A DNA stretch of 64,000 nt, from assembly GCF_013122565.1 (NCBI RefSeq), contig NZ_CP053258.1; one strand, given 5' to 3'. The translations under genes were made by a program, and so were the position numbers. Below, piece after piece: positions 1,951 through 55,536 of the stretch. This stretch comes from Escherichia coli (lineage in GTDB: Bacteria; Pseudomonadota; Gammaproteobacteria; Enterobacterales; Enterobacteriaceae). The first letter of the stretch is position 1; the number at the start of each line of letters is the position of its first letter. The notes under the pieces are model-generated. The model saw nothing but the letters and a program-made list of their open reading frames with translations. It was not told the origin of the DNA and did not search any database.

Positions 1951-2349
1951 ATGTCTACAACACATAACGTCCCTCAGGGCGATCTTGTTTTACGTACTTT
2001 AGCCATGCCCGCCGATACCAATGCCAATGGTGACATCTTTGGTGGTTGGTTAATGTCACAAATGGATATTGGCGGCGCTATTCTGGCGAAAGAAATTGCC
2101 CACGGTCGCGTAGTGACTGTGCGGGTTGAAGGAATGACTTTCTTACGGCCGGTTGCGGTCGGCGATGTGGTGTGCTGCTATGCACGCTGTGTCCAGAAAG
2201 GGACGACATCGGTCAGCATTAATATTGAAGTGTGGGTGAAAAAAGTAGCGTCTGAACCAATCGGGCAACGCTATAAAGCGACAGAAGCATTATTTAAGTA
2301 TGTCGCGGTTGATCCTGAAGGAAAACCTCGCGCCTTACCTGTTGAGTAA
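1951..2349 (+). CDS. yciA: Acyl-CoA thioesterase YciA (hotdog fold)
   Basis: 132-aa ORF, recognised YciA sequence; synteny. Confidence 0.93.
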   Translation: MSTTHNVPQGDLVLRTLAMPADTNANGDIFGGWLMSQMDIGGAILAKEIAHGRVVTVRVEGMTFLRPVAVGDVVCCYARCVQKGTTSVSINIEVWVKKVASEPIGQRYKATEALFKYVAVDPEGKPRALPVE

Positions 2350-2354
2350 TAATC

Positions 2355-2378
2355 AAAAGCCTCCGGTCGGAGGCTTTT
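2355..2378. terminator. Bidirectional Rho-independent terminator between convergent yciA and tonB
   Basis: Perfect hairpin aaaagcctccg-gtc-ggaggctttt with A-run on one side and T-run on the other, lying between the two stop codons. Confidence 0.8.
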
Positions 2379-2388
2379 GACTTTCTGC

Positions 2389-3108
2389 TTACTGAATTTC
2401 GGTGGTGCCGTTAATTTTAAACAGGATATTCACCACAATCCCACTGCCTGGCTTACCCGGCTCATAACGCCATCTGCGCATCGCATTTTTCACCTCACGC
2501 TCAAACATGTTCGCAGGCTTGGCTGAGAGGATTTGCACGTTATCCACGCGACCATCCGGCGTGACATCAAATTTAACTTTAACCTGCCCTTCAATGCGCA
2601 ATGCCTGTGCTCGTGCCGGATACTGCGGCTGATTACGGCTTAATGCGCGTGGTCCTGAAGCCACACTGGTAACCGGCTTGCTGGTTGCAGCCGTTGCCGT
2701 ACTTGATGTAGGGCGCGCGGGTGCCGTATTTTCAAACGGTGATGCCGGACGCGACTCTACGGGTTTGACATCGCGTTTTGGCTGCTCCTGTACCTTTTTC
2801 ACCGGCTTCGGTTTTGGCTTAGGTTTCGGCTTCGGCTTTTCAATGACCACCGGTGCTTCTTTTGGCGGTTCAGGAATCGGCTCAGGTTCCGGTTCTGGCT
2901 CTACCACCGGCTCCGGTGGCGGCTGAACGGCTTGTGGCGGTTCGAGATCAGCAGGCGCAACCATCGTAACAGAAATCGGCTGCGCAGGCGCAGGTAGTTC
3001 AATAACCTGATGTACCGAGGTATAGAGCAGACCCGCCACAACAGCACCATGAATGCAGACCGAAAGTAACGTCGGCCAGGGGAAGCGGCGAGGTAAATCA
3101 AGGGTCAT
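2389..3108 (-). CDS. tonB: TonB energy transducer (239 aa; internal start used, track ORF extends to 3159)
   Basis: [18 protein letters not shown]-terminus, (EP)n and (KP)n proline-rich repeats, C-terminal TonB domain. Confidence 0.95.
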
Positions 3109-3331
3109 TGAAGTCATAATCATTTCAGCAGAAAAACCAGGCCTCGATTTTAAATGCAAATAGCAATCATATTCAATAAGGCAAGACGATCAGGATCAGT
3201 GAAAATGTCATTTTTGGCGTAATTGACCTTACTTTATGCATGGTCTTAACAAAGACATCATCTTTCCGTTGCAGATCTTCGCCCTTTCAAATAACGTACT
3301 TTACAACTTTCCCGAACAAGGAGTTGTGCCC

Positions 3332-3628
3332 GTGTTGTATGTTATTTACGCTCAAGACAAAGCTGATAGCCTCGAAAAACGCCTTTCCGTTCGTCCGGCA
3401 CATTTAGCACGTTTACAGTTACTGCATGATGAAGGTCGTTTGTTGACAGCTGGTCCAATGCCAGCGGTAGACAGTAACGATCCAGGGGCTGCGGGATTTA
3501 CTGGCTCAACCGTTATTGCTGAATTTGAATCGCTGGAAGCAGCTCAGGCCTGGGCCGATGCTGACCCGTACGTAGCGGCAGGTGTCTATGAACACGTTTC
3601 AGTGAAACCATTTAAGAAAGTGTTCTGA
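3332..3628 (+). CDS. yciI: YciI-family protein (98 aa, GTG start preceded by AAGGAG)
   Basis: [18 protein letters not shown] sequence recognised as YciI; SD aaggag 9 nt upstream of GTG at 3332. Confidence 0.9.
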
Positions 3629-3650
3629 GTAGAGATCCAATATTTAAGGG

Positions 3651-3678
3651 CACGGTTTTTGCAACCGTGTTCTTGTTT
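3651..3678 (+). terminator. Rho-independent terminator after yciI
   Basis: Hairpin cacggtt-tttgc-aaccgtg followed by ttcttgttt. Confidence 0.7.
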
Positions 3679-3927
3679 GGCCTTTCCTTATAGCCGGTCA
3701 GTGCATTCACCACCACAAGCAGATAATAACTTTATCTGTATTTCTTTATATGATGTGAGCATATTCAGGAAAAATGACCTTTCCTGAGGTACAGTTGCTC
3801 GCTCAAAACCTTTGATTACTGCGGATAAAGTCATCTACTATTGTTTAACACATTCACGCGCTGCATGTATGTTCGGAAAATGTGCACGCTAAGATAATTA
3901 AACAAAATTGTGGTTACAGAGGTATCA

Positions 3928-5181
3928 GTGAGTCACTGGGCTACATTCAAACAAACAGCAACAAATTTATGGGTGACCCTACGGCACGACATGCTCGCGC
4001 TGGCCGTCTTTTTAAATGGATTGCTTATTTTTAAAACAATCTATGGTATGTCGGTCAATTTGCTTGATATTTTCCATATTAAAGCATTTTCAGAGCTGGA
4101 TCTCTCCTTGCTGGCAAACGCCCCACTATTTATGCTCGGCGTATTTCTTGTCCTGAACTCCATTGGCTTACTGTTCCGGGCAAAGCTCGCATGGGCAATC
4201 AGTATCATTTTGTTGTTGATAGCGCTAATTTACACCCTGCATTTTTATCCGTGGCTGAAATTCAGTATTGGATTTTGCATTTTTACGCTGGTGTTTTTGC
4301 TGATACTGCGCAAAGACTTCTCCCACAGTAGCGCCGCAGCCGGGACAATTTTCGCATTTATTAGTTTCACGACGTTACTGTTTTACTCCACCTACGGTGC
4401 GCTTTATTTAAGCGAAGGTTTTAATCCGCGAATAGAAAGTTTGATGACCGCGTTCTATTTTTCAATAGAAACCATGTCAACCGTCGGCTATGGCGATATT
4501 GTCCCTGTTTCTGAGTCAGCACGATTGTTCACTATTTCGGTCATTATTTCCGGCATTACCGTTTTTGCCACCTCTATGACCTCAATTTTTGGTCCGCTTA
4601 TCCGCGGGGGATTCAACAAACTTGTAAAAGGAAACAATCATACAATGCATCGTAAAGATCATTTTATTGTTTGCGGGCATTCGATTCTCGCCATCAATAC
4701 GATTCTGCAACTGAATCAACGCGGACAAAACGTAACGGTTATCAGCAACTTGCCTGAAGATGATATCAAGCAACTTGAGCAACGCTTAGGCGATAACGCT
4801 GATGTTATCCCCGGTGACAGTAATGACAGTTCAGTATTAAAGAAAGCGGGAATCGATCGTTGCCGGGCCATTCTGGCGCTGAGTGATAACGATGCAGATA
4901 ACGCGTTTGTTGTACTCTCGGCAAAAGATATGAGCAGTGATGTTAAAACAGTTCTCGCCGTCAGTGATAGCAAAAACCTGAATAAGATTAAGATGGTACA
5001 TCCGGATATCATTCTCTCACCGCAACTGTTTGGCAGCGAAATTCTGGCGCGAGTTTTAAATGGTGAAGAGATTAATAATGATATGCTCGTTTCAATGTTG
5101 TTGAACTCCGGTCATGGCATTTTCAGCGATAACGATGAACAAGAAACGAAAGCTGACAGTAAAGAATCGGCGCAAAAATAG
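3928..5181 (+). CDS. kch: Kch potassium channel homologue (417 aa, GTG start; track ORF begins at 3910)
   Basis: TM core with pore signature TVGYGD and C-terminal RCK/TrkA-like domain; sequence recognised as Kch. Confidence 0.93.
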   Translation: MSHWATFKQTATNLWVTLRHDMLALAVFLNGLLIFKTIYGMSVNLLDIFHIKAFSELDLSLLANAPLFMLGVFLVLNSIGLLFRAKLAWAISIILLLIALIYTLHFYPWLKFSIGFCIFTLVFLLILRKDFSHSSAAAGTIFAFISFTTLLFYSTYGALYLSEGFNPRIESLMTAFYFSIETMSTVGYGDIVPVSESARLFTISVIISGITVFATSMTSIFGPLIRGGFNKLVKGNNHTMHRKDHFIVCGHSILAINTILQLNQRGQNVTVISNLPEDDIKQLEQRLGDNADVIPGDSNDSSVLKKAGIDRCRAILALSDNDADNAFVVLSAKDMSSDVKTVLAVSDSKNLNKIKMVHPDIILSPQLFGSEILARVLNGEEINNDMLVSMLLNSGHGIFSDNDEQETKADSKESAQK

Positions 5182-5235
5182 AGTTTAAAGACGGAAGAGT
5201 AAACTTATTGGGCACCGCAATGGTGCCCAGTACAT

Positions 5236-5409
5236 TTAGATATTGTAGATCGCAAACAATAACGAGTTACGCTGTTTGTTTAGAATGCACTTCCTGATGC
5301 TGTGGATACGCATATTTCGGCGCGATTGCCCCTCAAGCCAACGCGATTTACGTCGGCTAGCCTGACGCTGCATGCGCCAGCGCCCCACTTCCGTTCTACT
5401 CCGCTTCAT
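5236..5409 (-). CDS. yciY: Small basic protein (57 aa), YciY-like
   Basis: ATG at 5409; MKRSRTEVGRWRMQRQASRRK arginine-rich product; I recall a small annotated gene at this position between cls and kch in K-12 but cannot verify. Confidence 0.4.
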   Translation of the reverse strand: MKRSRTEVGRWRMQRQASRRKSRWLEGQSRRNMRIHSIRKCILNKQRNSLLFAIYNI

Positions 5410-5551
5410 GTTAACTACTCTATGCAATAACAGAATGGTCATTATACCCCCGCCCCCGACGCTGACCAGTGCTTTTCCCGCGTTTTTATTTGCCAGATGA
5501 ATCCATATGCGTAAACTCATAACAATGCGCTTTCAAAAGGATTTCTAATCT

Positions 5552-7376
<1,825 letters not shown>

Positions 7377-7405
7377 CGCTTGCAATCGGATGTGACGCAG
7401 CTGCG

Positions 7406-8275
7406 TCACATCCGCTCTTCATTTTCCACATCTACCTTTTCCCTCCCCAGTTCATTGCCACAAATACGACAATACTTCGCATCCTGTGCATGATTTTGGG
7501 TATTGCATTTAGGACAACAGAGAAGTTTTTTAGTCTGTTCAAGTTCGCTGGTGAGTTGCGCAGTAATAATCCCCGTCGGAATTGCAATGACTGAGTAGCC
7601 AATTAAGATTAATACTGAGGCCACCATCCTTCCTGCCTCTGTATGCGGCGTAATATCCCCATATCCAACGGTAGTCACAGTCACTATCGCCCAGTAAACC
7701 GCTGTACCCAACGAGTTAAATCCGTTTGATGCGCCTTCTATAGCGTACATTAACGCCCCAGCGACGATCATCACAATTGCAATAAATGCATAAAAAAGAA
7801 TCAACTGATGTCGGGCATTTTTTATCGCCCGCCATAAACTGTTTAAGGCAGGCATAAAGCGAAGCAGGCGCAAAATTCGCAACGCGCGAATAGCTCTCAT
7901 CGCTCGCCAGGCAAATAAATAAGTAAAACCAATTTCAGGCCATAGCCACATAACATACAGCGGCAAAATGGTGGTCAGATCGATAATTCCCCAAAAGCTA
8001 AAAACATAACTTACCGGATTCGGCCAGCTTAATATCCGCAGGAAATACTCGATGGTGAAAATTAAGGTAAAGAAGAGTTCCACCCAGACAAAGATATGCC
8101 ATTCGTCGTAGGTTAACTGAAATTGCGATCCAATACCGGATTCTATGAAAACAACGCCAACACTTAACAATGCGAGAAAACCAAACAGCGCCTCGCATCG
8201 TCTACCGGTTTTTGTATGCCGATCAAAAAGAAAATGATAAAACCGCTGACGATAGCCTGAAAGTTGTCCTGTCAC
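7406..8275 (-). CDS. Kv-type voltage-gated potassium channel (6 TM, charged S4, TVGYGD pore) with C-terminal zinc-ribbon tail
   Basis: 289-aa ORF; S4 motif RAMRAIRALRILRLLR with R every third residue; selectivity filter TVGYGD; C-terminal CPKC-x12-CRIC; GGGAGG SD 5 nt upstream of GTG start. Confidence 0.8.
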   Translation of the reverse strand: MTGQLSGYRQRFYHFLFDRHTKTGRRCEALFGFLALLSVGVVFIESGIGSQFQLTYDEWHIFVWVELFFTLIFTIEYFLRILSWPNPVSYVFSFWGIIDLTTILPLYVMWLWPEIGFTYLFAWRAMRAIRALRILRLLRFMPALNSLWRAIKNARHQLILFYAFIAIVMIVAGALMYAIEGASNGFNSLGTAVYWAIVTVTTVGYGDITPHTEAGRMVASVLILIGYSVIAIPTGIITAQLTSELEQTKKLLCCPKCNTQNHAQDAKYCRICGNELGREKVDVENEERM

Positions 8276-8290
8276 CTGCGCCTCCCATGA

Positions 8291-8317
8291 AAAAGGGCCG
8301 GCAATTGACCAGCCCTT
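8291..8317 (-). terminator. Rho-independent terminator of the opp operon
   Basis: On minus strand GGGCUGG-ucaauug-CCGGCCC stem-loop followed by UUUUU, beginning 8 nt after the oppF stop. Confidence 0.7.
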
Positions 8318-8324
8318 AACCGCT

Positions 8325-9329
8325 TTATAACGGATCGACTTTCAGGCAAGAAACGGCGTGTCTGAAACTCCCCTCCAGCACAGGACGTGTTTTGGCACAC
8401 TCCGGACCGGCAATCGGGCAACGGGTACGGAAAACACAACCGGAAGGCGGGTTGATCGGCGACGGTAATTCCCCTTCCAGTAACTGGATGGTTTTGTTCT
8501 TCTCCAGATCCGGATCAGGTATGGGGACTGCCGACATCAATGCCCGGGTGTAAGGATGTAGTGGATTGTGGTAGACCTCATCATAGGTCCCCAGTTCTAC
8601 CGCATGGCCGAGATACATCACTAACACACGATCGGAAATGTGTTTTACCACGGCCAGGTCGTGAGCGATAAAAATTAATGACAATCCCATCTCACGTTGC
8701 AACTGCTGGAGCAGGTTGACCACCTGCGCCTGAATTGACACGTCCAGCGCCGACACCGGCTCATCACAGATAATCAGCTTCGGTTCAAGAATAAGAGCAC
8801 GAGCAATCCCGATACGCTGGCACTGCCCACCGGAAAATTCATGCGGATAGCGGTTAATCAGGTTAGGCAATAACCCGACTTTCAGCATCATCGCCTTCAC
8901 GCGCTCGCGAACTTCCTGGCGTGACATTTTCGGATGATAGGTACGCAGCGGTTCAGCGATAATCTCACCGATGGTCATACGCGGGTTTAGTGATGCTAAC
9001 GGATCCTGGAAAATCATCTGAATATCACTGCGAACGGCACGCCATTCATCGGGCTTCATGCCCAGCAACTCTTTACCTAACCAAGCAACATGACCGTCGG
9101 TCGCCTTGACCAAACCGATGATGGCGCGAGCAAAGGTGGACTTACCGCATCCCGATTCCCCTACCACACCTAATGTTTCCCCTTCATACAGGCGAAGAGT
9201 GACACCATCGACGGCTTTGAGCGTTTTCGGCGGTTGCCAGAACCACTGCTTGCCATCTTTGATTTCAAAGTGCACTTTTAGATCGGCGATTTCGAGGAGG
9301 ACTTTTCTTCCTTCGGTTACAGCATTCAT
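8325..9329 (-). CDS. oppF: Oligopeptide ABC transporter ATP-binding protein OppF
   Basis: 334-aa ORF with Walker A GESGCGKST and ABC signature LSGGQCQR. Confidence 0.96.
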   Translation of the reverse strand: MNAVTEGRKVLLEIADLKVHFEIKDGKQWFWQPPKTLKAVDGVTLRLYEGETLGVVGESGCGKSTFARAIIGLVKATDGHVAWLGKELLGMKPDEWRAVRSDIQMIFQDPLASLNPRMTIGEIIAEPLRTYHPKMSRQEVRERVKAMMLKVGLLPNLINRYPHEFSGGQCQRIGIARALILEPKLIICDEPVSALDVSIQAQVVNLLQQLQREMGLSLIFIAHDLAVVKHISDRVLVMYLGHAVELGTYDEVYHNPLHPYTRALMSAVPIPDPDLEKNKTIQLLEGELPSPINPPSGCVFRTRCPIAGPECAKTRPVLEGSFRHAVSCLKVDPL

Positions 9330-10339
9330 AACAGTTCCTCCACCGGTTTAAAGCAAGCACGCAGACGGCCAGGCGTAAACTCTTCCAGTGGCGGTGCGCT
9401 ACTACAAATTTCCATCGCATGTGGACAACGTGGCTGGAACGGGCAACCTTTCGGTAATCGCAGCAAGTTTGGTGGATTACCCGGGATGGTCAACATTGTT
9501 TCACCTTCCGCATCGAGACGCGGCACCGCGTTGAGCAAACCGATAGAATAAGGATGAACGGGTTGATAAAAGACATCGCGCGCGTTGCCATATTCCATCG
9601 TGCGCCCGGCATACATTACCAGCACTTTGTCGCAGATCCCCGCCACCACGCCAAGATCGTGGGTGATCATTATGATGGCGGTATTAAATTCCCGCTTCAG
9701 TTCATTCAATAGCGTCATGATCTGCGCCTGTACGGTGACGTCCAGCGCAGTAGTGGGTTCATCCGCAATCAGCAGCTTAGGTCGACATAGCAATGCCATC
9801 GCAATCATGACTCGCTGACGCATGCCGCCAGAAAATTCGTGCGGGTACATTTTCATGCGTTTACGCGCTTCCGGCATTTTTACCGCATCGAGCATCCGCA
9901 CCGACTCTTCAAACGCCTCAGCTTTGCTCATGTTCTTATGCAGCATCAGCACTTCCATTAACTGCTCACCGACACGCATATAGGGATTCAACGAAGTCAT
10001 TGGGTCCTGAAAAATCATTGAGATTTGTTCAGCGCGCAGTTTATTGAGTTCATGCTCTGGCAAATTGAGGATTTCACGCCCATTGAAGGTTGCCGAACCG
10101 CCAATACGTCCGTTGGCAGCCAACAGGCCCATCAACGCAAATGCAGTTTGCGATTTACCCGAACCAGACTCACCTACAATGCCCAACGTTTCTCCGGCTC
10201 GTAGGGAAAAATTCAAATCATTGACCGCCGTGACGTCGCCGTCCGGGGTACTAAAGGTGACACGCAAATCTTTCACGTTCAGCAGTGCGTCAGCCTGTTG
10301 TTGTGCGAGCGGCACAGTTGCAGTTTCAATTACGCTCAT
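9326..10339 (-). CDS. oppD: Oligopeptide ABC transporter ATP-binding protein OppD
   Basis: 337-aa ORF with Walker A GESGSGKSQ and ABC signature FSGGMRQR; 4-bp overlap with oppF. Confidence 0.96.
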   Translation of the reverse strand: MSVIETATVPLAQQQADALLNVKDLRVTFSTPDGDVTAVNDLNFSLRAGETLGIVGESGSGKSQTAFALMGLLAANGRIGGSATFNGREILNLPEHELNKLRAEQISMIFQDPMTSLNPYMRVGEQLMEVLMLHKNMSKAEAFEESVRMLDAVKMPEARKRMKMYPHEFSGGMRQRVMIAMALLCRPKLLIADEPTTALDVTVQAQIMTLLNELKREFNTAIIMITHDLGVVAGICDKVLVMYAGRTMEYGNARDVFYQPVHPYSIGLLNAVPRLDAEGETMLTIPGNPPNLLRLPKGCPFQPRCPHAMEICSSAPPLEEFTPGRLRACFKPVEELL

Positions 10340-10350
10340 GGCTGCACTCC

Positions 10351-11259
10351 TTAACGATCTTTCGGGTCGAGGGCATCACGCAAGCCATCGCCGATAAAGT
10401 TGAAACAAAACAGCGTCACCACGAGGAATCCCGCTGGGAACAACAGTAACCATGGAGAGACTTCCATCGAGTTCGCGCCATCACTCAGCAATGCACCCCA
10501 GCTGCTTAACGGCTCTTGCGTACCCAACCCCAGAAAGCTAAGGAAAGATTCAAAGAGGATCATGCTGGGCACCAGAAGTGATGCGTAGACCACCACCACA
10601 CCGAGTACATTCGGCACAATGTGGCGAATAACAATGCCCGACGTCGATACACCGCCAACTTGTGCCGCCTCAATAAACTCTTTGCGCTTCAGACTCAGGG
10701 TTTGCCCACGCACAATACGAGCCATATCCAGCCAGGAAACCATGCCTATCGCCACGAAAATCAGCAGGATGTTTTGACCGAAAAAGGTCACCAGCAAAAT
10801 GACGAAGAACATGAATGGGAAGGAGTTGAGGATTTCCAGCAGACGCATCATTACCGAATCCACTTTACCGCCCAGATAACCGGAAAGCGAACCATAAAGT
10901 GTCCCGACGACCACTGCCACCAGTGCCGCAGCAACACCAACCATGAGTGAGATACGCCCGCCAATCGCAACGCGCACAAGCAGGTCGCGACCGGATGAGT
11001 CAGTACCAAAGTAGTGACCGGACTCCATATCCGGGGCGCTGGACATCATCGCCCAGTCAGTATCATCATAGGCAAACTGCGAAAGCATCGGTGCCAGGAT
11101 TACAAATAACGCGATCAGCACCAGCACTATCAGACTGGCAACGGCCGCACGGTTATGCATAAAACGTCGACGTGCGTCCTGCCACAAGCTGCGCCCTTCG
11201 ACCTCCAGCTTTTCACTGAAATTTTCCAGCGTCTCGCTGTTTTTCTTACTTAACATCAT
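10351..11259 (-). CDS. oppC: Oligopeptide ABC transporter permease OppC
   Basis: 302-aa multi-TM permease; operon context. Confidence 0.95.
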   Translation of the reverse strand: MMLSKKNSETLENFSEKLEVEGRSLWQDARRRFMHNRAAVASLIVLVLIALFVILAPMLSQFAYDDTDWAMMSSAPDMESGHYFGTDSSGRDLLVRVAIGGRISLMVGVAAALVAVVVGTLYGSLSGYLGGKVDSVMMRLLEILNSFPFMFFVILLVTFFGQNILLIFVAIGMVSWLDMARIVRGQTLSLKRKEFIEAAQVGGVSTSGIVIRHIVPNVLGVVVVYASLLVPSMILFESFLSFLGLGTQEPLSSWGALLSDGANSMEVSPWLLLFPAGFLVVTLFCFNFIGDGLRDALDPKDR

Positions 11260-11273
11260 CGCGAGCTCCAGTA

Positions 11274-12194
11274 TCAGTAACGGATTTTCGGGTCGATAAC
11301 CGCATATAGCACATCGACAATGGCATTAAACAAAATGGTTAACGCGCCAACCAGAATGGTCAGACTTAACACTAAGGAATAGTCACGGTTCAATGCGCCA
11401 TTAACGAACAATTGTCCAATCCCCGGCAAACCATAAATGGTTTCGATGACCATAGAACCGGTAATAATGCCGACAAATGCGGGGCCCATATAGGAGAGCA
11501 CGGGTAACAGAGCAGGTTTTAAAGCGTGGCGTAAAATGATCCGCCGCATAGGTAACCCTTTCGCCCGGGCAGTGCGAATAAAGTTGGAGTGCAATACTTC
11601 AATCATAGAGCCACGGGTAATACGCGCAATACTGGCGATATAGGCGAGTGACAACGCCACCATTGGCAGTATCATGAATTTAAGCGCACCACCATTCCAG
11701 CCACCGCCCGGCAGCCAATGCAAAATGATCGCAAATATCATGACTAATAATGGCGCAACCACAAAACTGGGGATAACAACCCCGGTCATTGCCAGCCCCA
11801 TCACGGTATAGTCCCATTTGGTGTTTTGTTTTAATGCGGCAATAACGCCAGCACTAACACCCAGTATTACCGCAAGGAAAAATGCTGCGGCTCCCAGTTT
11901 GGCAGAAACGGGAAAACTGGATGCAACCAGGTCATTGACCGAATAATCTTTATATTTAAACGATGGACCGAAATCGCCATGCGCCAGTTGTTTCAGGTAG
12001 CTGAAATACTGTGTCATGATCGGATCATTAAGATGATATTTCGCTTCGATATTGGCCATTACTTCCGGTGGTAAAGTACGTTCGCCGGTAAAAGGGCTTC
12101 CCGGCGCGAGGCGCATCATAAAGAACGAAATAGTAATAAGAATAAATAGCGTCGGAATCGCTTCCAGACAGCGACGTAGAATAAATTTTAACAT
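11274..12194 (-). CDS. oppB: Oligopeptide ABC transporter permease OppB
   Basis: 306-aa multi-TM permease; operon context. Confidence 0.95.
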   Translation of the reverse strand: MLKFILRRCLEAIPTLFILITISFFMMRLAPGSPFTGERTLPPEVMANIEAKYHLNDPIMTQYFSYLKQLAHGDFGPSFKYKDYSVNDLVASSFPVSAKLGAAAFFLAVILGVSAGVIAALKQNTKWDYTVMGLAMTGVVIPSFVVAPLLVMIFAIILHWLPGGGWNGGALKFMILPMVALSLAYIASIARITRGSMIEVLHSNFIRTARAKGLPMRRIILRHALKPALLPVLSYMGPAFVGIITGSMVIETIYGLPGIGQLFVNGALNRDYSLVLSLTILVGALTILFNAIVDVLYAVIDPKIRY

Positions 12195-12279
12195 TGCCCT
12201 ACCTTCTGGCCTGTGCCTTCTGTAATGCGATAAAAATCAGACACCGTGGAGCAGGACACTCCTGCCCCACGTATTGCCA

Positions 12280-13911
12280 TTAGTGCTTCACAATGTACAT
12301 ATTCCGGGTGTAGGTATTATCCAGCGGATCTTTGCCGGTATAGCCACCAACCCACGGTTTCACCAGACGCGCATTCACGTAGTAATAAACAGGAACAATG
12401 GCCGAATCCTTATCCAGCTGTTGTTCTGCTTTAGTGTACAGAGCTGTGCGCTGCGCCTCGTCAGTCACTTTCAGCGTTTCCGCCATAATGCTGTCAAAGG
12501 CCGGGCTCTTATAATGCGCGGTATTCATCGAGCTGTTCGACAGCATGGTGTTCAGGAAGGAAGTTGGTTCGTTATAGTCTGCACACCAGCCTGCACGGGC
12601 CACATCAAAAGTGCCCTGATGACGGGTGTCGAGGAACGTTTTCCACTCCTGGTTAACCAGTTTGACGTTTACACCAATGTTTTTCTTCCACAATGAAGAG
12701 GCAGCAATCGCCAGCTTTTTATGCAGATCGGAGGTGTTATACAACAGGTTGATGGTCAACGGTTTGTCTGCGGTATAACCCGCTTCAGCCAGCAGTTTTT
12801 TTGCTTCTTCGTTACGTTTTTCCTGGCTCCAGCCAAACCATTCCGGCTGAGTCAATTTTGCGCCATCAGTATACGGTGGAGTGTAACCATAGGCGGGCAT
12901 GTCGCCCTGTGCTTTCACTTTATTAACAATGATATCGCGGTCCATACCCAGTTTCAGTGCGGTACGCACACGCACATCGTTGAATGGCGGTTTCTGGTTG
13001 TTAATTTCGTAATAGTAAGTGCACAGGTATGGATCAACGTGAACTTCGTCCGGGATCTCTTTTTTCAGCTTCTGGAACAATTCGATCGGCATATTGTTAT
13101 ACGTCATGTCGATTTCACCACTACGGTAGCGGTTGACATCAGTAACTTCAGAAGCAATAGGCAAATAGGTTACCTGGTTAATAACGGTTTTCGCGTTGTT
13201 CCAGTAGGTCGGGCTGCGTTCAAGAACGATTCGTTCGTTTACGACCCAATCTTTTAAGGTATAGGCACCGTTGGTGACGATATTACCAGGCTGGGTCCAT
13301 TTTTCGCCGAATTTCTCGATAGCGGCTTTTGGCACCGGTGAAGTTGATGGGTGAACAAGTAATTTATAGAAGTACGGAACGGGTTCACTTAAGGTGACTT
13401 CTAATGTGTGATCATCAATAGCTTTCACGCCGAGATCGGTAATCGGTTTTTTCCCTTCAAGAATTTCATCAATACCGGCGATATGCCCATATTGCAGATA
13501 ACTGGCATACGGAGAAGCGGTGTTTGGATCAACAGAACGTTGCCAGCTATACACAAAGTCTTGTGCTGTGACTGGCGTGCCATCAGACCATTTCGCATCT
13601 TTACGCAAATGGAAGGTCCAGACTTTCGCGTCTTTATTATCCCAGGATTCAGCGACGCCAGGTGCCGGATGACCGTCAAGGTCGCTGACCAGTAAGCCTT
13701 CAAACAGGTCCCGGCTGATATTAGACTCCGGCACACCTTCAATTTTGTGCGGATCTAATGACTGAACTTCTGAACCATTGTTACGTACCAGCGTTTGTTT
13801 TTCCGCCAGTGTGACGCCTGCGGGTACATCAGCTGCCAGCGCGACATTCCCTGCCATTAGCGCAGCCAGAACGCCAGCTGCTACTAAACTTCTCTTGGTG
13901 ATGTTGGTCAT
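12280..13911 (-). CDS. oppA: Periplasmic oligopeptide-binding protein OppA (543-aa precursor)
   Basis: MTNITKRSLVAAGVLAALMAGNVALA signal peptide then family 5 solute-binding domain; track ORF extends 15 codons upstream. Confidence 0.95.
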   Translation of the reverse strand: MTNITKRSLVAAGVLAALMAGNVALAADVPAGVTLAEKQTLVRNNGSEVQSLDPHKIEGVPESNISRDLFEGLLVSDLDGHPAPGVAESWDNKDAKVWTFHLRKDAKWSDGTPVTAQDFVYSWQRSVDPNTASPYASYLQYGHIAGIDEILEGKKPITDLGVKAIDDHTLEVTLSEPVPYFYKLLVHPSTSPVPKAAIEKFGEKWTQPGNIVTNGAYTLKDWVVNERIVLERSPTYWNNAKTVINQVTYLPIASEVTDVNRYRSGEIDMTYNNMPIELFQKLKKEIPDEVHVDPYLCTYYYEINNQKPPFNDVRVRTALKLGMDRDIIVNKVKAQGDMPAYGYTPPYTDGAKLTQPEWFGWSQEKRNEEAKKLLAEAGYTADKPLTINLLYNTSDLHKKLAIAASSLWKKNIGVNVKLVNQEWKTFLDTRHQGTFDVARAGWCADYNEPTSFLNTMLSNSSMNTAHYKSPAFDSIMAETLKVTDEAQRTALYTKAEQQLDKDSAIVPVYYYVNARLVKPWVGGYTGKDPLDNTYTRNMYIVKH

Positions 13912-14647
13912 TGTTTTTTGGACTCCCTCATTATAATTACTGGTAGTAACCAGCATGTGTAATCCCGGATTGGGACCCTGTACAGGCTCGGAGACTTTCT
14001 GCTGTCAGGTTACTTTATCGTTACGGATTGCTATCACCGACTTTATTTATTCTGGTGATTCAGACGATCACCTTATGTCGATTCGTACTGTGTCTCCCCT
14101 GTCGAGACACATTATTCTTTCGCGACGCTCTTTAATTGTTAATTATTCTCATTACCAATAAAAATCGTCTGGCGGTTGCCCGGAAAGTACCAAATGCGCT
14201 TCTTGCTCGCCAATACATTTTGCAAAATTGTTAAGCAATTCTCTTTTATTGACCGCAGCAGAATCTATAGCTTGCATCCATGTCTTAACAAACATCTTTC
14301 AATTCAATCAAATAGAGATTGGTTAAGCATGTCTATCTTTTCTGATTACAGTTCCCGTAGTGAAATGCACAATAATTTAACAATTGATTATTATTTAGCA
14401 CTTTCCTCTGCCAAAGGCAGTGGAATTACTAATATCATTTCAATTATTCTTCAGCAAGCCCAGGATTATGATGTGGTGAAAATAACATGATGGTGAGGAG
14501 AAGCAGTTAAGGAAATCCTTATAACTAACTGTAATTTGAGAAGAATATTTTTACCTATTCCTTTTGCTTTTGATAACTGCGTAGGAACAAAGTAAAAATA
14601 ATGACGAAGTAAACGGAGCATGGCGGCTCCGTTTCATTTGAAAGGAA

Positions 14648-15295
14648 TTAATTAAGCAGGCCGGGGAAAATCCCCTTAATACCAGTAACGATAAATTCAA
14701 TCCCCAATGCCATCAGCAATAGCCCCATAATACGCGTAATCACGTTGATGCCGGTCTGGCGTAAAACCCGTACCAGCCACGGTGCCATGCGGAACAATCC
14801 CCAGCAACATAAAGCGAACAACGCAATAGCCACAAAGAAACCAAACAGATAGCTAATGCTGTGATAACGCGTACCCCAGACGATGGTAGAACTGATCGCC
14901 CCTGGCCCCGCCATCAACGGCAACGCCAATGGCACCACACCAATGCTTTCACGTACCGCGGTTTCTGATTTTTCTTGCTTGTTCTGTTTATCCTCACCAA
15001 GCTTGCCGCTGATCATCGACATCGCTATTGTCACCACCAGGATGCCACCGGCGATACGGAATGAATCAATTGATATACCAAAAAGTTGTAGAATCGTGTC
15101 GCCGAGAAAAAGCGAGATCCACAAGATAATGGCCACAGACAGGTTGGCTGTAAGGTTAGTTTTGTTTCGCGCTGCCGCTGTCTGATAACTGGTCATGCTG
15201 ATAAAGACGGGAATAATCCCTACCGGGTTGACCAGCGCAAATAACCCGATGAAAAATTTGAAGTAAACGGGAAAATCAAAAAGGGTCTGAATCAC
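14648..15295 (-). CDS. ychE: MarC-family (UPF0056) inner membrane protein YchE
   Basis: 215-aa multi-TM ORF, recognised; synteny. Confidence 0.9.
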   Translation of the reverse strand: MIQTLFDFPVYFKFFIGLFALVNPVGIIPVFISMTSYQTAAARNKTNLTANLSVAIILWISLFLGDTILQLFGISIDSFRIAGGILVVTIAMSMISGKLGEDKQNKQEKSETAVRESIGVVPLALPLMAGPGAISSTIVWGTRYHSISYLFGFFVAIALFALCCWGLFRMAPWLVRVLRQTGINVITRIMGLLLMALGIEFIVTGIKGIFPGLLN

Positions 15296-15772
15296 GGTTA
15301 GCTCCGAAGCAAAAGCCGGATAATGTTAGCCATAAATAAGGTTGAAAAGACGCGCTGACAATACGCCTTTTGACGGCATTTTTCACCTCCTAACTACTTA
15401 AAATTGCTATCATTCGTTATTGTTATCTGGTTGTGCAAAACATGCTAATGTAGCCACCAAATCATACTACAATTTATTAACTGTTAGCTATAATGGCGAA
15501 AAGCGATGCTGAAAGGTGTCAGCTTTGCAAAAATTTGATTTGGATCACGTAATAAGTACCCAGAAGTGAGTAATCTTGCTTACGCCACCAGGAAGTGACG
15601 CATTAGAGATAAATAGCTCTAATGTTTAAACTCTTTTAGTAAATCACAGCGAGTGTGAGCGCGAGTAAGCTTTTGATTTTCATTGGTTAAGCAAATCATC
15701 ACCGCACTGACTATACTCTCGTATTCGAGCAGATGATTTACTAAAAAAGTTTAACATTATCAGGAGAGCATT

Positions 15773-18448
15773 ATGGCTGTTACTAATGTCGCTGAACTTA
15801 ACGCACTCGTAGAGCGTGTAAAAAAAGCCCAGCGTGAATATGCCAGTTTCACTCAAGAGCAAGTAGACAAAATCTTCCGCGCCGCCGCTCTGGCTGCTGC
15901 AGATGCTCGAATCCCACTCGCGAAAATGGCCGTTGCCGAATCCGGCATGGGTATCGTCGAAGATAAAGTGATCAAAAACCACTTTGCTTCTGAATATATC
16001 TACAACGCCTATAAAGATGAAAAAACCTGTGGTGTTCTGTCTGAAGACGACACTTTTGGTACCATCACTATCGCTGAACCAATCGGTATTATTTGCGGTA
16101 TCGTTCCGACCACTAACCCGACTTCAACTGCTATCTTCAAATCGCTGATCAGCCTGAAGACCCGTAACGCCATTATCTTCTCCCCGCACCCGCGTGCAAA
16201 AGATGCAACCAACAAAGCGGCTGATATCGTTCTGCAGGCTGCTATCGCTGCCGGTGCTCCGAAAGATCTGATCGGCTGGATCGATCAACCTTCTGTTGAA
16301 CTGTCTAACGCACTGATGCACCACCCAGACATCAACCTGATCCTCGCGACTGGTGGTCCGGGCATGGTTAAAGCCGCATACAGCTCCGGTAAACCAGCTA
16401 TCGGCGTAGGCGCGGGTAACACTCCGGTTGTTATCGATGAAACTGCTGATATCAAACGTGCAGTTGCATCTGTACTGATGTCCAAAACCTTCGACAACGG
16501 CGTAATCTGTGCTTCTGAACAGTCTGTTGTTGTTGTTGACTCTGTTTATGACGCAGTACGTGAACGTTTTGCAACCCACGGCGGCTATCTGTTGCAGGGT
16601 AAAGAGCTGAAAGCTGTTCAGGATGTTATCCTGAAAAACGGTGCGCTGAACGCGGCTATCGTTGGTCAGCCAGCCTATAAAATTGCTGAACTGGCAGGCT
16701 TCTCTGTACCAGAAAACACCAAGATTCTGATCGGTGAAGTGACCGTTGTTGATGAAAGCGAACCGTTCGCACATGAAAAACTGTCCCCGACTCTGGCAAT
16801 GTACCGTGCTAAAGATTTCGAAGACGCGGTAGAAAAAGCAGAGAAACTGGTTGCTATGGGTGGTATCGGTCATACCTCTTGCCTGTACACTGACCAGGAT
16901 AACCAACCGGCTCGCGTTTCTTACTTCGGTCAGAAAATGAAAACGGCTCGTATCCTGATTAACACCCCGGCTTCTCAGGGTGGTATCGGTGACCTGTATA
17001 ACTTCAAACTCGCACCTTCCCTGACTCTGGGTTGTGGTTCTTGGGGTGGTAACTCCATCTCTGAAAACGTTGGTCCGAAACACCTGATCAACAAGAAAAC
17101 CGTTGCTAAGCGAGCTGAAAACATGTTGTGGCACAAACTTCCGAAATCTATCTACTTCCGCCGTGGCTCCCTGCCAATCGCGCTGGATGAAGTGATTACT
17201 GATGGCCACAAACGTGCGCTCATCGTGACTGACCGCTTCCTGTTCAACAATGGTTATGCTGATCAGATCACTTCCGTACTGAAAGCAGCAGGCGTTGAAA
17301 CTGAAGTCTTCTTCGAAGTAGAAGCGGACCCGACCCTGAGCATCGTTCGTAAAGGTGCAGAACTGGCAAACTCCTTCAAACCAGACGTGATTATCGCGCT
17401 GGGTGGTGGTTCCCCGATGGACGCCGCGAAGATCATGTGGGTTATGTACGAACATCCGGAAACTCACTTCGAAGAGCTGGCGCTGCGCTTTATGGATATC
17501 CGTAAACGTATCTACAAGTTCCCGAAAATGGGCGTGAAAGCGAAAATGATCGCTGTCACCACCACTTCTGGTACAGGTTCTGAAGTCACTCCGTTTGCGG
17601 TTGTAACTGACGACGCTACTGGTCAGAAATATCCGCTGGCAGACTATGCGCTGACTCCGGATATGGCGATTGTCGACGCCAACCTGGTTATGGACATGCC
17701 GAAGTCCCTGTGTGCTTTCGGTGGTCTGGACGCAGTAACTCACGCCATGGAAGCTTATGTTTCTGTACTGGCATCTGAGTTCTCTGATGGTCAGGCTCTG
17801 CAGGCACTGAAACTGCTGAAAGAATATCTGCCAGCGTCCTACCACGAAGGGTCTAAAAATCCGGTAGCGCGTGAACGTGTTCACAGTGCAGCGACTATCG
17901 CGGGTATCGCGTTTGCGAACGCCTTCCTGGGTGTATGTCACTCAATGGCGCACAAACTGGGTTCCCAGTTCCATATTCCGCACGGTCTGGCAAACGCCCT
18001 GCTGATTTGTAACGTTATTCGCTACAACGCGAACGACAACCCGACCAAGCAGACTGCATTCAGCCAGTATGACCGTCCGCAGGCTCGCCGTCGTTATGCT
18101 GAAATTGCTGACCACCTGGGTCTGAGCGCACCGGGCGACCGTACTGCTGCTAAGATCGAGAAACTGCTGGCATGGCTGGAAACGCTGAAAGCTGAACTGG
18201 GTATTCCGAAATCTATCCGTGAAGCTGGCGTTCAGGAAGCAGACTTCCTGGCGAATGTGGATAAACTGTCTGAAGATGCATTCGATGACCAGTGCACTGG
18301 CGCTAACCCGCGTTACCCGCTGATCTCCGAGCTGAAACAGATTCTGCTGGATACCTACTACGGTCGTGATTATGTAGAAGGCGAAACTGCAGCGAAGAAA
18401 GAAGCTGCTCCGGCTAAAGCTGAGAAAAAAGCGAAAAAATCCGCTTAA
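15773..18448 (+). CDS. adhE: Bifunctional acetaldehyde-CoA / alcohol dehydrogenase AdhE
   Basis: 891-aa [29 protein letters not shown]; N-terminal ALDH and C-terminal Fe-ADH domains. Confidence 0.98.
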
Positions 18449-21382: not shown

Positions 21383-21406
21383 TCTTTTGTAGATTGCACT
21401 TGCTTA

Positions 21407-21432
21407 AAATCCCGCCATCGGCGGGATTTTTT
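21407..21432 (+). terminator. Rho-independent terminator of hns
   Basis: Hairpin aaaatcccgcc-atcg-gcgggatttttt 25 nt after the stop codon. Confidence 0.85.
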
Positions 21433-26268: not shown

Positions 26269-26353
<85 letters not shown>

Positions 26354-26530
26354 TCACTTTCAAAAGTTCCTGAACTCTCAAGCGAATCCGCAATTAAATA
26401 TTCTGCCCAAGCGGTGAAGGATGAGAAGATTCGACCAAGGTTCGACTCGAGCGTCAGCGAGAGAGCGTTGCCGCAGGCAACGACCCGAAGGGCGAAGCGC
26501 GCAGCGCTAGTAATCCTTCCCCCACCACCA
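26354..26530 (+). repeat. rtT-type repeat unit downstream of tRNA-Tyr, ending in a copy of the tRNA 3' end
   Basis: Unit ends with aatccttcccccaccacca, identical to the last 19 nt of the tRNA; the following ~50 bp re-start the unit in degenerate form. Confidence 0.75.
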
Positions 26531-42780: not shown

Positions 42781-42848
42781 AGAGAAAACCCCCGCACGTT
42801 GAGAGGTACAACCTGACAACAGAACGGGGGCTAATCTTGAACCAGAAC
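42781..42848 (-). ncRNA. rdl: Candidate Rdl-type antisense RNA (antitoxin of Ldr), ~66 nt; ends approximate
   Basis: Minus strand has -35 TTGTAA / 17 bp / -10 TATTCT, then a ~66-nt unit ending in CCCCCG...CGGGGG hairpin plus UUUUCUCUUU, placed antisense in the ldr leader. Confidence 0.45.
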
Positions 42849-53047: not shown

Positions 53048-53101
53048 GTACGAGATTGACCAGTCAGCGCAAACTGACTGGTCAGCAAACTGCAGTATTT
53101 G

Positions 53102-54359: not shown

Positions 54360-55451
54360 ATGGGATTCAAATGCGGTATCGTCGGTTTGCCCAACGTCGG
54401 GAAATCTACCCTGTTCAACGCGCTGACCAAAGCCGGTATTGAAGCGGCCAACTTTCCATTCTGCACCATTGAGCCAAACACAGGCGTCGTACCAATGCCT
54501 GATCCTCGCCTGGATCAACTGGCTGAAATCGTAAAACCGCAACGTACGCTTCCCACGACCATGGAATTTGTCGATATCGCCGGTCTGGTAAAAGGCGCAT
54601 CGAAAGGCGAAGGTCTGGGTAACCAGTTCCTGACTAACATCCGTGAAACCGAAGCGATCGGTCACGTTGTTCGCTGCTTTGAAAATGACAACATCATTCA
54701 CGTTTCCGGCAAAGTTAACCCAGCGGACGATATTGAAGTTATCAACACCGAACTGGCGCTGGCAGACCTCGACACCTGCGAACGTGCGATTCATCGCGTA
54801 CAGAAGAAAGCCAAAGGTGGCGATAAAGACGCGAAAGCTGAGCTGGCGGTACTGGAAAAATGCCTGCCGCAGCTGGAAAACGCAGGTATGCTGCGCGCGC
54901 TGGATTTAAGCGCTGAAGAGAAAGCGGCTATTCGTTACCTGAGCTTCCTGACGCTGAAACCAACAATGTACATCGCCAACGTTAACGAAGACGGTTTTGA
55001 AAACAACCCGTATCTTGACCAGGTGCGTGAAATCGCGGCGAAAGAAGGTTCTGTTGTGGTTCCGGTTTGTGCTGCTGTTGAAGCAGACATTGCCGAACTG
55101 GACGACGAAGAACGTGACGAGTTTATGCAGGAGCTTGGGCTGGAAGAGCCGGGCCTGAACCGTGTGATCCGTGCCGGTTATAAGCTGCTGAACCTGCAAA
55201 CTTACTTCACCGCTGGAGTGAAAGAAGTGCGTGCATGGACAATTCCGGTTGGTGCAACCGCGCCGCAGGCAGCGGGCAAAATCCATACTGATTTTGAAAA
55301 AGGCTTTATCCGTGCACAAACCATCTCGTTTGAAGATTTCATCACTTACAAAGGTGAACAAGGCGCGAAAGAAGCAGGCAAAATGCGTGCAGAAGGTAAA
55401 GATTACATCGTTAAAGATGGCGATGTGATGAACTTCCTTTTCAACGTCTAA
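54360..55451 (+). CDS. ychF: Ribosome-binding ATPase YchF (Obg-family)
   Basis: 363-aa [26 protein letters not shown] with P-loop and C-terminal TGS domain. Confidence 0.97.
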
Positions 55452-55507: not shown

Positions 55508-55536
55508 AAAATCCACGCAATTGCGTGGATTTTTCA
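55508..55536 (+). terminator. Rho-independent terminator of pth-ychF
   Basis: Perfect palindrome atccacgcaattgcgtggat followed by ttttt. Confidence 0.85.

Follow-up and report, generated by a model that had tools for sequence, protein, structure and literature searches.

The perfect 28-bp palindrome located between the convergent yciU and channel genes of Escherichia coli is most likely a feature of an ordinary kind, namely a 3'-end hairpin shared by two convergent genes and endowed with a REP-like sequence. It probably operates as an RNA structure at the common 3' ends of the yciU and channel transcripts, where it would terminate transcription, stabilize the mRNA or do both. Judging from its immediate sequence context, the hairpin (7387-7414) would constitute at best a marginal intrinsic terminator, and this in a single direction, that of yciU. 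All coordinates refer to the window, the whole stretch of 64,000 nucleotides that was analyzed.

Anatomy of the palindrome and its surroundings

The gene order around the palindrome is kch, yciY, cls, yciU (plus strand), channel gene (minus strand) and oppFDCBA (minus strand). The yciU CDS (7047-7376, plus strand) encodes a DUF440/HI1450-family protein and ends with a TGA codon at 7374-7376; it was delineated from the list of open reading frames and from the PGAP annotation of PT62, a strain 99.8% identical to the window. The potassium-channel-like ORF (7406-8275, minus strand), hereafter the channel ORF, defined from the same list and by domain search, starts with GTG and encodes a protein of 289 aa carrying Ion_trans and Ion_trans_2 domains. 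A Cys-rich motif at the C-terminus of this protein gave a weak, sub-threshold zinc-ribbon match. Within the same gene, an Rfam K_chan_RES match of 23 bits, to be compared with a gathering score of 51, was treated as noise.

The two ORFs converge on a gap of 29 bp. As reported in the preliminary description of this DNA, the palindrome starts 11 bp past the yciU stop codon, in this gap, and overlaps the channel TGA (7406-7408), a codon contained in the 5' arm of the minus-strand hairpin. The 10-nt spacer separating the yciU stop codon from the hairpin was read as CGCTTGCAAT (7377-7386, plus strand); its minus-strand version, AUUGCAAGCG, forms the U-poor tail found past the hairpin in the channel transcript. 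The terminator scan revealed a moderately U-rich tail, CTCTTCATTTTCC (7415-7427, plus strand), past the hairpin in the yciU transcript. A second hairpin, the oppF-proximal terminator AAAAA-GGGCCGG...CCAGCCC-TT, lies between oppF and the channel gene (about 8290-8319, not assigned to one strand). Comparison with the K-12 gap identified it as the ortholog of the sole hairpin remaining between oppF and yciU in that strain, which reads GGGCTGACA...TGTCAGCCC and possesses A and T tracts.

Direct reading of the sequence confirmed that CGGATGTGACGCAGCTGCGTCACATCCG / cggatgtgacgcagctgcgtcacatccg forms a perfect 28-bp palindrome at exactly 7387-7414, with the 12-bp arms around agct described previously. 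This 28-mer is wholly self-complementary and can be viewed as two 14-nt arms with a spacer of 0 or, equivalently, as a 12-bp stem (8 GC pairs) closed by a 4-nt AGCU loop; folding and repeat scans indicate an RNA hairpin on either strand. The core of the stem, CGGAT-nn-GACGC/GCGTC-nn-ATCCG, is REP-like. The palindrome is the longest perfect inverted repeat of the window, in which a single copy was found when up to 3 mismatches were allowed, and the exact 28-mer was absent from the metagenome contigs searched. The fold energy, which the preliminary description had proposed as a check, amounts to -21.9 kcal/mol for the 28-mer (z = -6.8), none of 200 shuffled sequences being as stable. When the flanks were included, the hairpin remained stable on both strands, with z values of -4.7 (plus) and -4.6 (minus) that no shuffle equaled.

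The earlier remark that palindromes of this length are rare by chance proved correct. Five loci of the window contain perfect inverted repeats with arms of at least 11 nt and a spacer of up to 8 nt, whereas each dinucleotide shuffle yielded 0.2 on average, or 0.03 for arms of at least 12 nt; a chance origin of the palindrome was rejected on this basis. Further long perfect hairpins of the window, at 2353-2380, 21406-21430 and 55508-55533, sit at gene 3' ends, the first two being located between the convergent genes yciA|tonB and hns|galU, respectively.

The overlap of the palindrome with the channel stop codon, also noted beforehand, is real in the window and is specific to its allele, not general to the locus. 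It results from a SNP at 7426 that converts TAA into GAA (7424-7426, minus strand), abolishes the usual channel stop and adds the residues ENEERM; all other alleles read TAA. Allele comparison located this TAA at 7424-7426 in PT62, LP5-1 and ET201, both annotated CDSs stopping there, and the same GTGTAA is carried at the channel stop position by the divergent Escherichia loci that we designate as cryptic-clade-like. The TAA alleles encode a channel protein of 283 aa, six codons shorter and ending in ...VDV, and leave the palindrome wholly intergenic, 9 nt beyond the channel stop. In the window allele, 9 nt of the palindrome are coding, solely through this SNP. The 289-aa allele is no sequencing error, since it recurs in three assemblies, of which one matches the whole locus with 100% identity.

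The channel locus and its hairpin in related genomes

The channel segment, about 900 bp in length, was found in only three of 5426 complete E. coli genomes, those of PT62, LP5-1 and ET201, with 99.9% identity. In K-12 and typical E. coli, yciU is followed by 52 bp and then by oppF, the channel gene and the palindrome being jointly missing; nothing in K-12 corresponds to the palindrome at 7387-7414. Relative to these genomes, the additional DNA has its left boundary about 10 bp from the palindrome. Both the rarity of the segment and the closeness of this boundary would fit a junction scar or a target-site structure, generated by insertion of the channel segment into the oppF-yciU gap, and the preliminary description had indeed envisaged an inserted segment with the palindrome as its scar, to be verified by alignment with the K-12 gap. 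Such an origin appears extremely improbable when the locus is considered across the Enterobacteriaceae. The order oppF-channel-yciU is encountered, in the same orientation, in eight species of several genera (loci L005-L012), with carriers in E. albertii, Kluyvera, Enterobacter, Superficieibacter, Citrobacter and another enterobacterium; it also occurs in the cryptic-clade-like loci (P0001 and P0002 protein groups, L085-L093), and at least six other genera are represented besides E. albertii and these Escherichia.

The extent of divergence points in the same direction. Between the cryptic-clade-like loci and the window, identity amounts to 91% for the channel gene and to 90-94% for cls-yciU and oppF on either side; the gene has diverged about as much as its flanks, as vertical descent predicts. 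The flanks of the window are those of an ordinary E. coli and share 98-99% identity with strain 1EC213 along 28 kb. Neither mobile-element genes nor terminal repeats were seen at the channel segment, and the hairpin family is found in E. albertii as well. The insertion scar was rejected on account of synteny and of the matched divergence of gene and flanks. These sequence comparisons indicate that the channel gene is ancestral between oppF and yciU, and that most E. coli are devoid of it, most simply by loss; the alignment with K-12 would then reflect the joint disappearance of gene and palindrome and not the creation of the latter by an insertion. A remnant of the left arm of the palindrome was sought at the deletion junction of typical E. 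coli. The sequence CGCTTTCGGCGTGA of 1EC213 could be aligned with CGCTTGCAATCGGATGTGA, the K-12 sequence being CGCTTTTAGCGTGA, and the same bases fit the right-hand junction about equally; this ambiguous trace was set aside.

The preliminary description had also called for the palindrome to be sought in other strains endowed with the channel gene; members of its family do occur in the other Escherichia that have this gene. More generally, the channel|yciU gap measures 30-55 bp and contains a stable hairpin in every lineage examined, with differing sequences; folding of the 11 relatives tested gave z values between -2.9 and -5.1 in all cases. In six of the eight loci L005-L012 (L006 and L008-L012), those of Kluyvera, E. 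cloacae, two Citrobacter, Superficieibacter and RIT691, the gap is occupied by bidirectional terminators of the A-tract/stem/T-tract type, whose stems are unrelated. In Enterobacter sp. Ag1, it contains a GC-rich hairpin devoid of A/T tracts. The Escherichia gaps share a CGGAT...ATCCG hairpin family that is perfect in the window and in PT62. Its other members comprise a bulged hairpin in the cryptic-clade-like loci (CGGATGAGACGC AGTT GCGTCACCATCCG), a stem with a single mismatch adjoining the loop in Escherichia sp. E1130, a stem with one mismatch in E. albertii (CGGATGGTGTCG ATAA CGCCACCATCCG) and the hairpin of an 84%-identical relative (GAGGATGC AGCA GCATCCTC). In the divergent Escherichia-like relative L095, with 80% protein identity, the gap extends to 183 bp and houses genuine REPs, together with another, unlike perfect palindrome adjoining yciU.

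Within the family, it is the inner part of the stem that has changed. Between the stems of the window and of E. albertii, several changes are two-sided and keep the pairing, and a 1-nt difference in length is matched in both arms. RNAalifold recovered the stem from eight close Escherichia-group sequences with a negligible covariation term of -0.05, these sequences being too few and too close for a statistical claim. The Escherichia hairpin stands where most other genera examined have a canonical bidirectional terminator. Position and structure have been kept and sequence has not, which argues for a transcript-end hairpin rather than a protein-binding site.

This pattern bears directly on the proposal that the palindrome might be the operator of a dimeric regulator, either CRP or another palindrome-binding protein. 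The twofold symmetry is perfect, and the TGTGA and TCACA pentamers pointed out earlier are present, separated by 10 nt (TGTGA-N10-TCACA). The half-sites of the CRP consensus are spaced by 6 nt (TGTGA-N6-TCACA), and the spacing was rightly judged unfit for CRP from the start. The pentamers are moreover not conserved: close relatives have TGAGA...TCACC and GGTGT...CCACC, with pairing kept. No promoter-like site was found in the region 6900-8500, the palindrome is placed at the 3' ends of the two genes that flank it, and plain terminators of unrelated sequence occupy this gap in most of the other genera examined. An operator role is accordingly very unlikely, and this candidate was set aside for its wrong spacing, unconserved half-sites, 3'-end location and lack of a nearby promoter.

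Resemblance to REP elements

The REPs of E. coli are imperfect palindromes preceded by a GTAG motif (PMC8266576) and constitute local 3'-UTR elements, about 60% of which lie between convergent genes (bioRxiv 10.64898/2026.03.23.713779). At gathering thresholds, Rfam returned no match at the palindrome site. With permissive settings, the palindrome was aligned to the second hairpin of naRNA4, a REP325-derived family, with 24.4 bits and an E value of 0.016-0.1, for a gathering score of 59.5; this was the only notable sub-threshold match. When a 48-nt query was compared by blastn with the 5426 E. coli genomes, only its own locus and one other were retrieved, the latter in 1016 genomes and with 31/37 identity (84%). 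The E value of 0.2 obtained for this match against 28 Gb falls, like the naRNA4 alignment, below conventional significance, and a palindromic query favors palindromic targets in REP matches. The second locus is a REP situated between tktB and ypfG; the 31/37 match is to the SA186 copy, and the K-12 copy is a textbook GCCGGATGCGACGCTGACGCGTCTTATCCGGCCTAC. The K-12 RefSeq feature table contains no repeat feature at tktB|ypfG, and the locus was called a REP from its own sequence, from the naRNA4 consensus and from the features given in PMC8266576, not from annotation.

The K-12 tktB|ypfG REP can be decomposed into GTAG GC CGGAT AA GACGC GTCA GCGTC GC ATCCG, and the minus strand of the window, in REP orientation, into GAAG AG CGGAT GT GACGC AGCT GCGTC AC ATCCG. 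The stem core of the palindrome equals that of this z2-type REP at 20 of 20 positions. The likeness to z2-type REPs (tktB|ypfG, REP325/naRNA4) extends to the length and to the convergent 3'-UTR setting, the palindrome being fully intergenic in the PT62-type allele, and a sharing of their roles as terminator, stabilizer or ribosome obstacle may be expected. The differences concern the motif, the bulge, the copy number, a location outside any BIME and the 9 coding nucleotides of the window allele. Comparison with the K-12 and SA186 REP copies places GAAG (7417-7420, minus strand), 2 nt 5' of the stem, at the position of the GTAG of genuine E. coli REPs (PMC8266576); the Escherichia relatives show GAAG or GAAA there, GTAG being found in none of them. 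At the positions of the conserved AA/GC mismatch bulge, the palindrome has a Watson-Crick-paired GT/AC, to which it owes its perfection. As for copy number, the palindrome occurs once in the window and only at its own locus in the 5426 genomes, the true REP at 84% being the one additional match. REP consensus patterns of the y and z types, with up to 3 mismatches, matched nowhere in the window, and a regular expression for the REP core detected only the palindrome itself in the 64 kb. Because it fails three defining features, GTAG, bulge and copy number, the palindrome is not classed as a REP.

The same features weigh against an active REP, that is a mobile multi-copy substrate of TnpA_REP/RAYT. 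GTAG is crucial for TnpA_REP, and restoration of a regular stem eliminates activity (PMC8266576). A stem core identical to that of z2-type copies and a convergent setting, as for most REPs, would suit such an element, but the palindrome carries GAAG for GTAG and paired GT/AC for AA/GC, is single-copy in the window, is confined to its own locus in E. coli genomes and is absent from metagenome contigs. We consider present-day mobility highly improbable, and the active REP was rejected on the GTAG, bulge and copy-number tests. The resemblance of the stem inclines us slightly towards descent from a REP. In sequence terms, the palindrome is probably a REP-like, long-immobile derivative and not an active REP; long immobility is suggested by the fact that no Escherichia relative possesses GTAG, which also weighs on the case for REP descent.

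The perfection of the stem may have a separate explanation. Template switching turns imperfect repeats into perfect ones (PMC7202029; PMC5941160), and a z2-type REP unit, deprived of the two features needed by the transposase, could have had its stem perfected by template switching during replication. The relatives are imperfect, the cryptic-clade-like stem being bulged and those of E1130 and E. albertii containing a single mismatch, and the E. coli lineage studied here is perfect, as this mechanism yields; selection for pairing gives the same result. By analogy with such cases, the perfect stem possibly represents the template-switch correction of a quasipalindrome.

Probable function at the shared 3' ends

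Several attributes of a bidirectional terminator are present at the palindrome. The GC-rich stem-loop lies just past both convergent stops and is stable on both strands, and the orthologous gap of related genomes holds a terminator in six of eight loci. On the channel strand, no U-tract is found 3' of the stem. A lenient scan of the plus strand gave a hit at 7387-7414 with the tail CTCTTCATTT, by which the yciU-side tail, CUCUUCAUUUUCC / CUCUUCAUUUU, is terminator-like. The sequence CTCTTCATTTT, with 5 T in 8, just passes this lenient scan, the U residues being interrupted and away from the stem. The tail at 7415-7427 is the only terminator-like one at the palindrome site; on the minus strand, the scan called no channel terminator at the palindrome, whose tail there contains no U-tract.

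Comparison with the bidirectional intrinsic terminators of yciA|tonB, hns|galU and K-12 oppF|yciU leads to a similar picture. The palindrome resembles them as a single GC-rich perfect hairpin that folds on both strands in a very short convergent gap, and differs from them in having no A-tract/T-tract flanks and in its tails, which are marginal towards yciU and poor in U towards the channel gene. Among the proposals of the preliminary description, the shared bidirectional terminator stem is the best supported, with canonical terminators in most other genera examined and a stable hairpin in every Escherichia relative; a U-rich tail is nevertheless confined to the yciU side, where it is weak.

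We therefore envisage a hairpin that acts differently on its two sides. Whichever strand is transcribed, the RNA would fold into a 12-bp GC-rich stem. On the yciU side, the stem followed by CUCUUCAUUUU may behave as a weak intrinsic terminator. The channel side has no U-tract, and the hairpin would need a different mode of action there; it could form a REP-like block to 3'-to-5' exonucleases and/or a site of pausing or of Rho-assisted termination. The proposal that the hairpin ends or protects both transcripts is founded on the analogy with REPs and on the canonical terminators found in synteny. REP325 is both a partly Rho-dependent terminator and an mRNA stabilizer, convergent gene pairs separated by REPs are more highly expressed, and 78 REPs lie within predicted bidirectional terminators (bioRxiv 10.64898/2026.03.23.713779).

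An influence on translation may be added to these effects. REPs located at most 15 nt from a stop codon reportedly cause ribosome stalling and a decrease in translation (PMC12306157). Because the hairpin is situated within 15 nt of both stops, it may slow terminating ribosomes, and the 289-aa allele would represent an extreme case of stalling since the terminating ribosome must melt the stem. Such an effect could even be the main one, stalled terminating ribosomes leading to mRNA cleavage, tmRNA tagging and reduced amounts of YciU and/or channel protein. The stop spacers of 10 nt (yciU) and 9 nt (usual channel stop), the TGA placed here in the 5' arm, the high stability of the stem (-21.9 kcal/mol) and the rule of at most 15 nt summarized for REPs in PMC12306157 are all in keeping with this possibility. 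The rule was, however, established for genuine REPs in other contexts; other genera also position ordinary terminators very near these stops, and closeness may simply reflect the shortness of the gap. We regard a predominantly translational role as unlikely; it is in any case compatible with the 3'-end role and probably additive to it.

The hairpin might conversely be a neutral relic, either a decayed REP or a palindrome perfected by mutation, retained with no selected function while the transcripts end elsewhere or by means of Rho. It is REP-like with both the GTAG motif and the bulge gone, most E. coli are entirely devoid of it, and the bias of template switching can create and keep perfect repeats in the absence of selection (PMC5941160). 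A stable hairpin is nevertheless present in the gap of every lineage examined despite complete sequence turnover. In addition, the E. coli that have no palindrome still have the oppF bidirectional terminator adjoining yciU, which suggests that a hairpin is needed at this position. Neutrality consequently receives a low probability, and a 3'-end function of the hairpin remains our preferred reading.

A more elaborate scenario can be drawn, to which we attach little likelihood as a whole. A REP would have landed in the channel|yciU gap of Escherichia before the split of E. coli and E. albertii, lost its GTAG and its bulge, and been kept with a perfected stem as the only 3'-end element of both genes, in replacement of the canonical terminator. 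In the strain studied here, ribosome occupancy could then decide on hairpin formation and on antisense run-on into yciU.

The palindrome itself matters little beyond annotation, and its overlap with a stop codon comes down to one SNP. The two channel alleles, of 283 and 289 aa, nonetheless constitute a natural pair in which the consequences of shifting a stop codon into a terminator stem can be assessed. The reading of the locus is corrected, the channel gene being no insertion but an old resident of the oppF-yciU interval, absent from most E. coli, most simply by loss. The locus also exemplifies the retention in place of a 3'-end hairpin whose sequence has shifted from that of a canonical terminator to that of a REP-like stem. 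If its REP origin is true, the palindrome would be a small case of a REP turned immobile and yet retained.

The channel gene and its surroundings

Two potassium-channel-like genes lie less than 3 kb apart in the window strain, namely kch (3910-5181) and the channel gene (7406-8275), whose product is a six-transmembrane Ion_trans channel bearing a Cys-rich, zinc-ribbon-like motif at its C-terminus. The channel gene is rare in E. coli, where 3 of 5426 complete genomes carry it and nearly all lack it, and its position between oppF and yciU is conserved across Enterobacteriaceae. The three carrier genomes originate from pigeons and a frog.

In the comparison strain 1EC213, about 13 kb of extra DNA separates tonB from yciI (window 3100-3900 versus 2300-16400 in its locus, L097). 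This DNA comprises a recombinase gene that is interrupted, the IS21-like element ISEc12 and remnants of phage-tail genes; it is absent from both the window and PT62, a strain carrying the channel gene. RNA matches at the Rfam gathering threshold were obtained elsewhere in the window for tRNA and RtT RNA in the tyrT region (26269-26530), where two RtT copies occur in PT62 against a single Rfam match in the window, and for the rdlD antitoxin RNA (42783-42848) of the ldr/rdl type I toxin-antitoxin system.

Perfect hairpins elsewhere in the window

The genes yciA and tonB converge on a 39-bp gap that holds a perfect hairpin with 13-bp arms (2353-2380; TCAAAAGCCTCCG GT CGGAGGCTTTTGA). With its A/T flanks, this hairpin is a textbook bidirectional terminator and offers a useful contrast to the palindrome at 7387-7414. 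Perfect hairpins with A/T tracts are also found between the convergent hns and galU (21406-21430; AAAATCCCGCC ATC GGCGGGATTTTTT) and downstream of a plus-strand ORF ending at 55451 (55508-55533; AAAATCCACGCAA TTGCGTGGATTTTTC). A perfect 11-bp inverted repeat at 53057-53084 (TTGACCAGTCAGCGCAAACTGACTGGTCAG) has no obvious A/T tracts.

The two flanks of the channel gene

Between oppF and the channel gene, the hairpin at 8290-8319 (AAAAA GGGCCGG CAATTGA CCAGCCC TT) is the ortholog of the sole oppF-yciU hairpin of K-12. Identity to typical E. coli across window 8001-8500 is unusually low, at 93.4% over 213 aligned bases, against 98-99% elsewhere.

On the yciU side, the divergent Escherichia-like relative represented by loci L095/L096, whose channel protein is 80% identical, has a 183-bp gap containing genuine REP units, for example GCCTGATGCGCTACGCCTTATCAGCCTAC. 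The gap also holds a perfect 24-bp palindrome, AATGAGCAGCATATGCTGCTCATT, which differs from the one at 7387-7414 and immediately adjoins the yciU stop codon. Since the gap of this relative holds both genuine REPs and a different perfect palindrome, the region between the channel gene and yciU acquires palindromes repeatedly.
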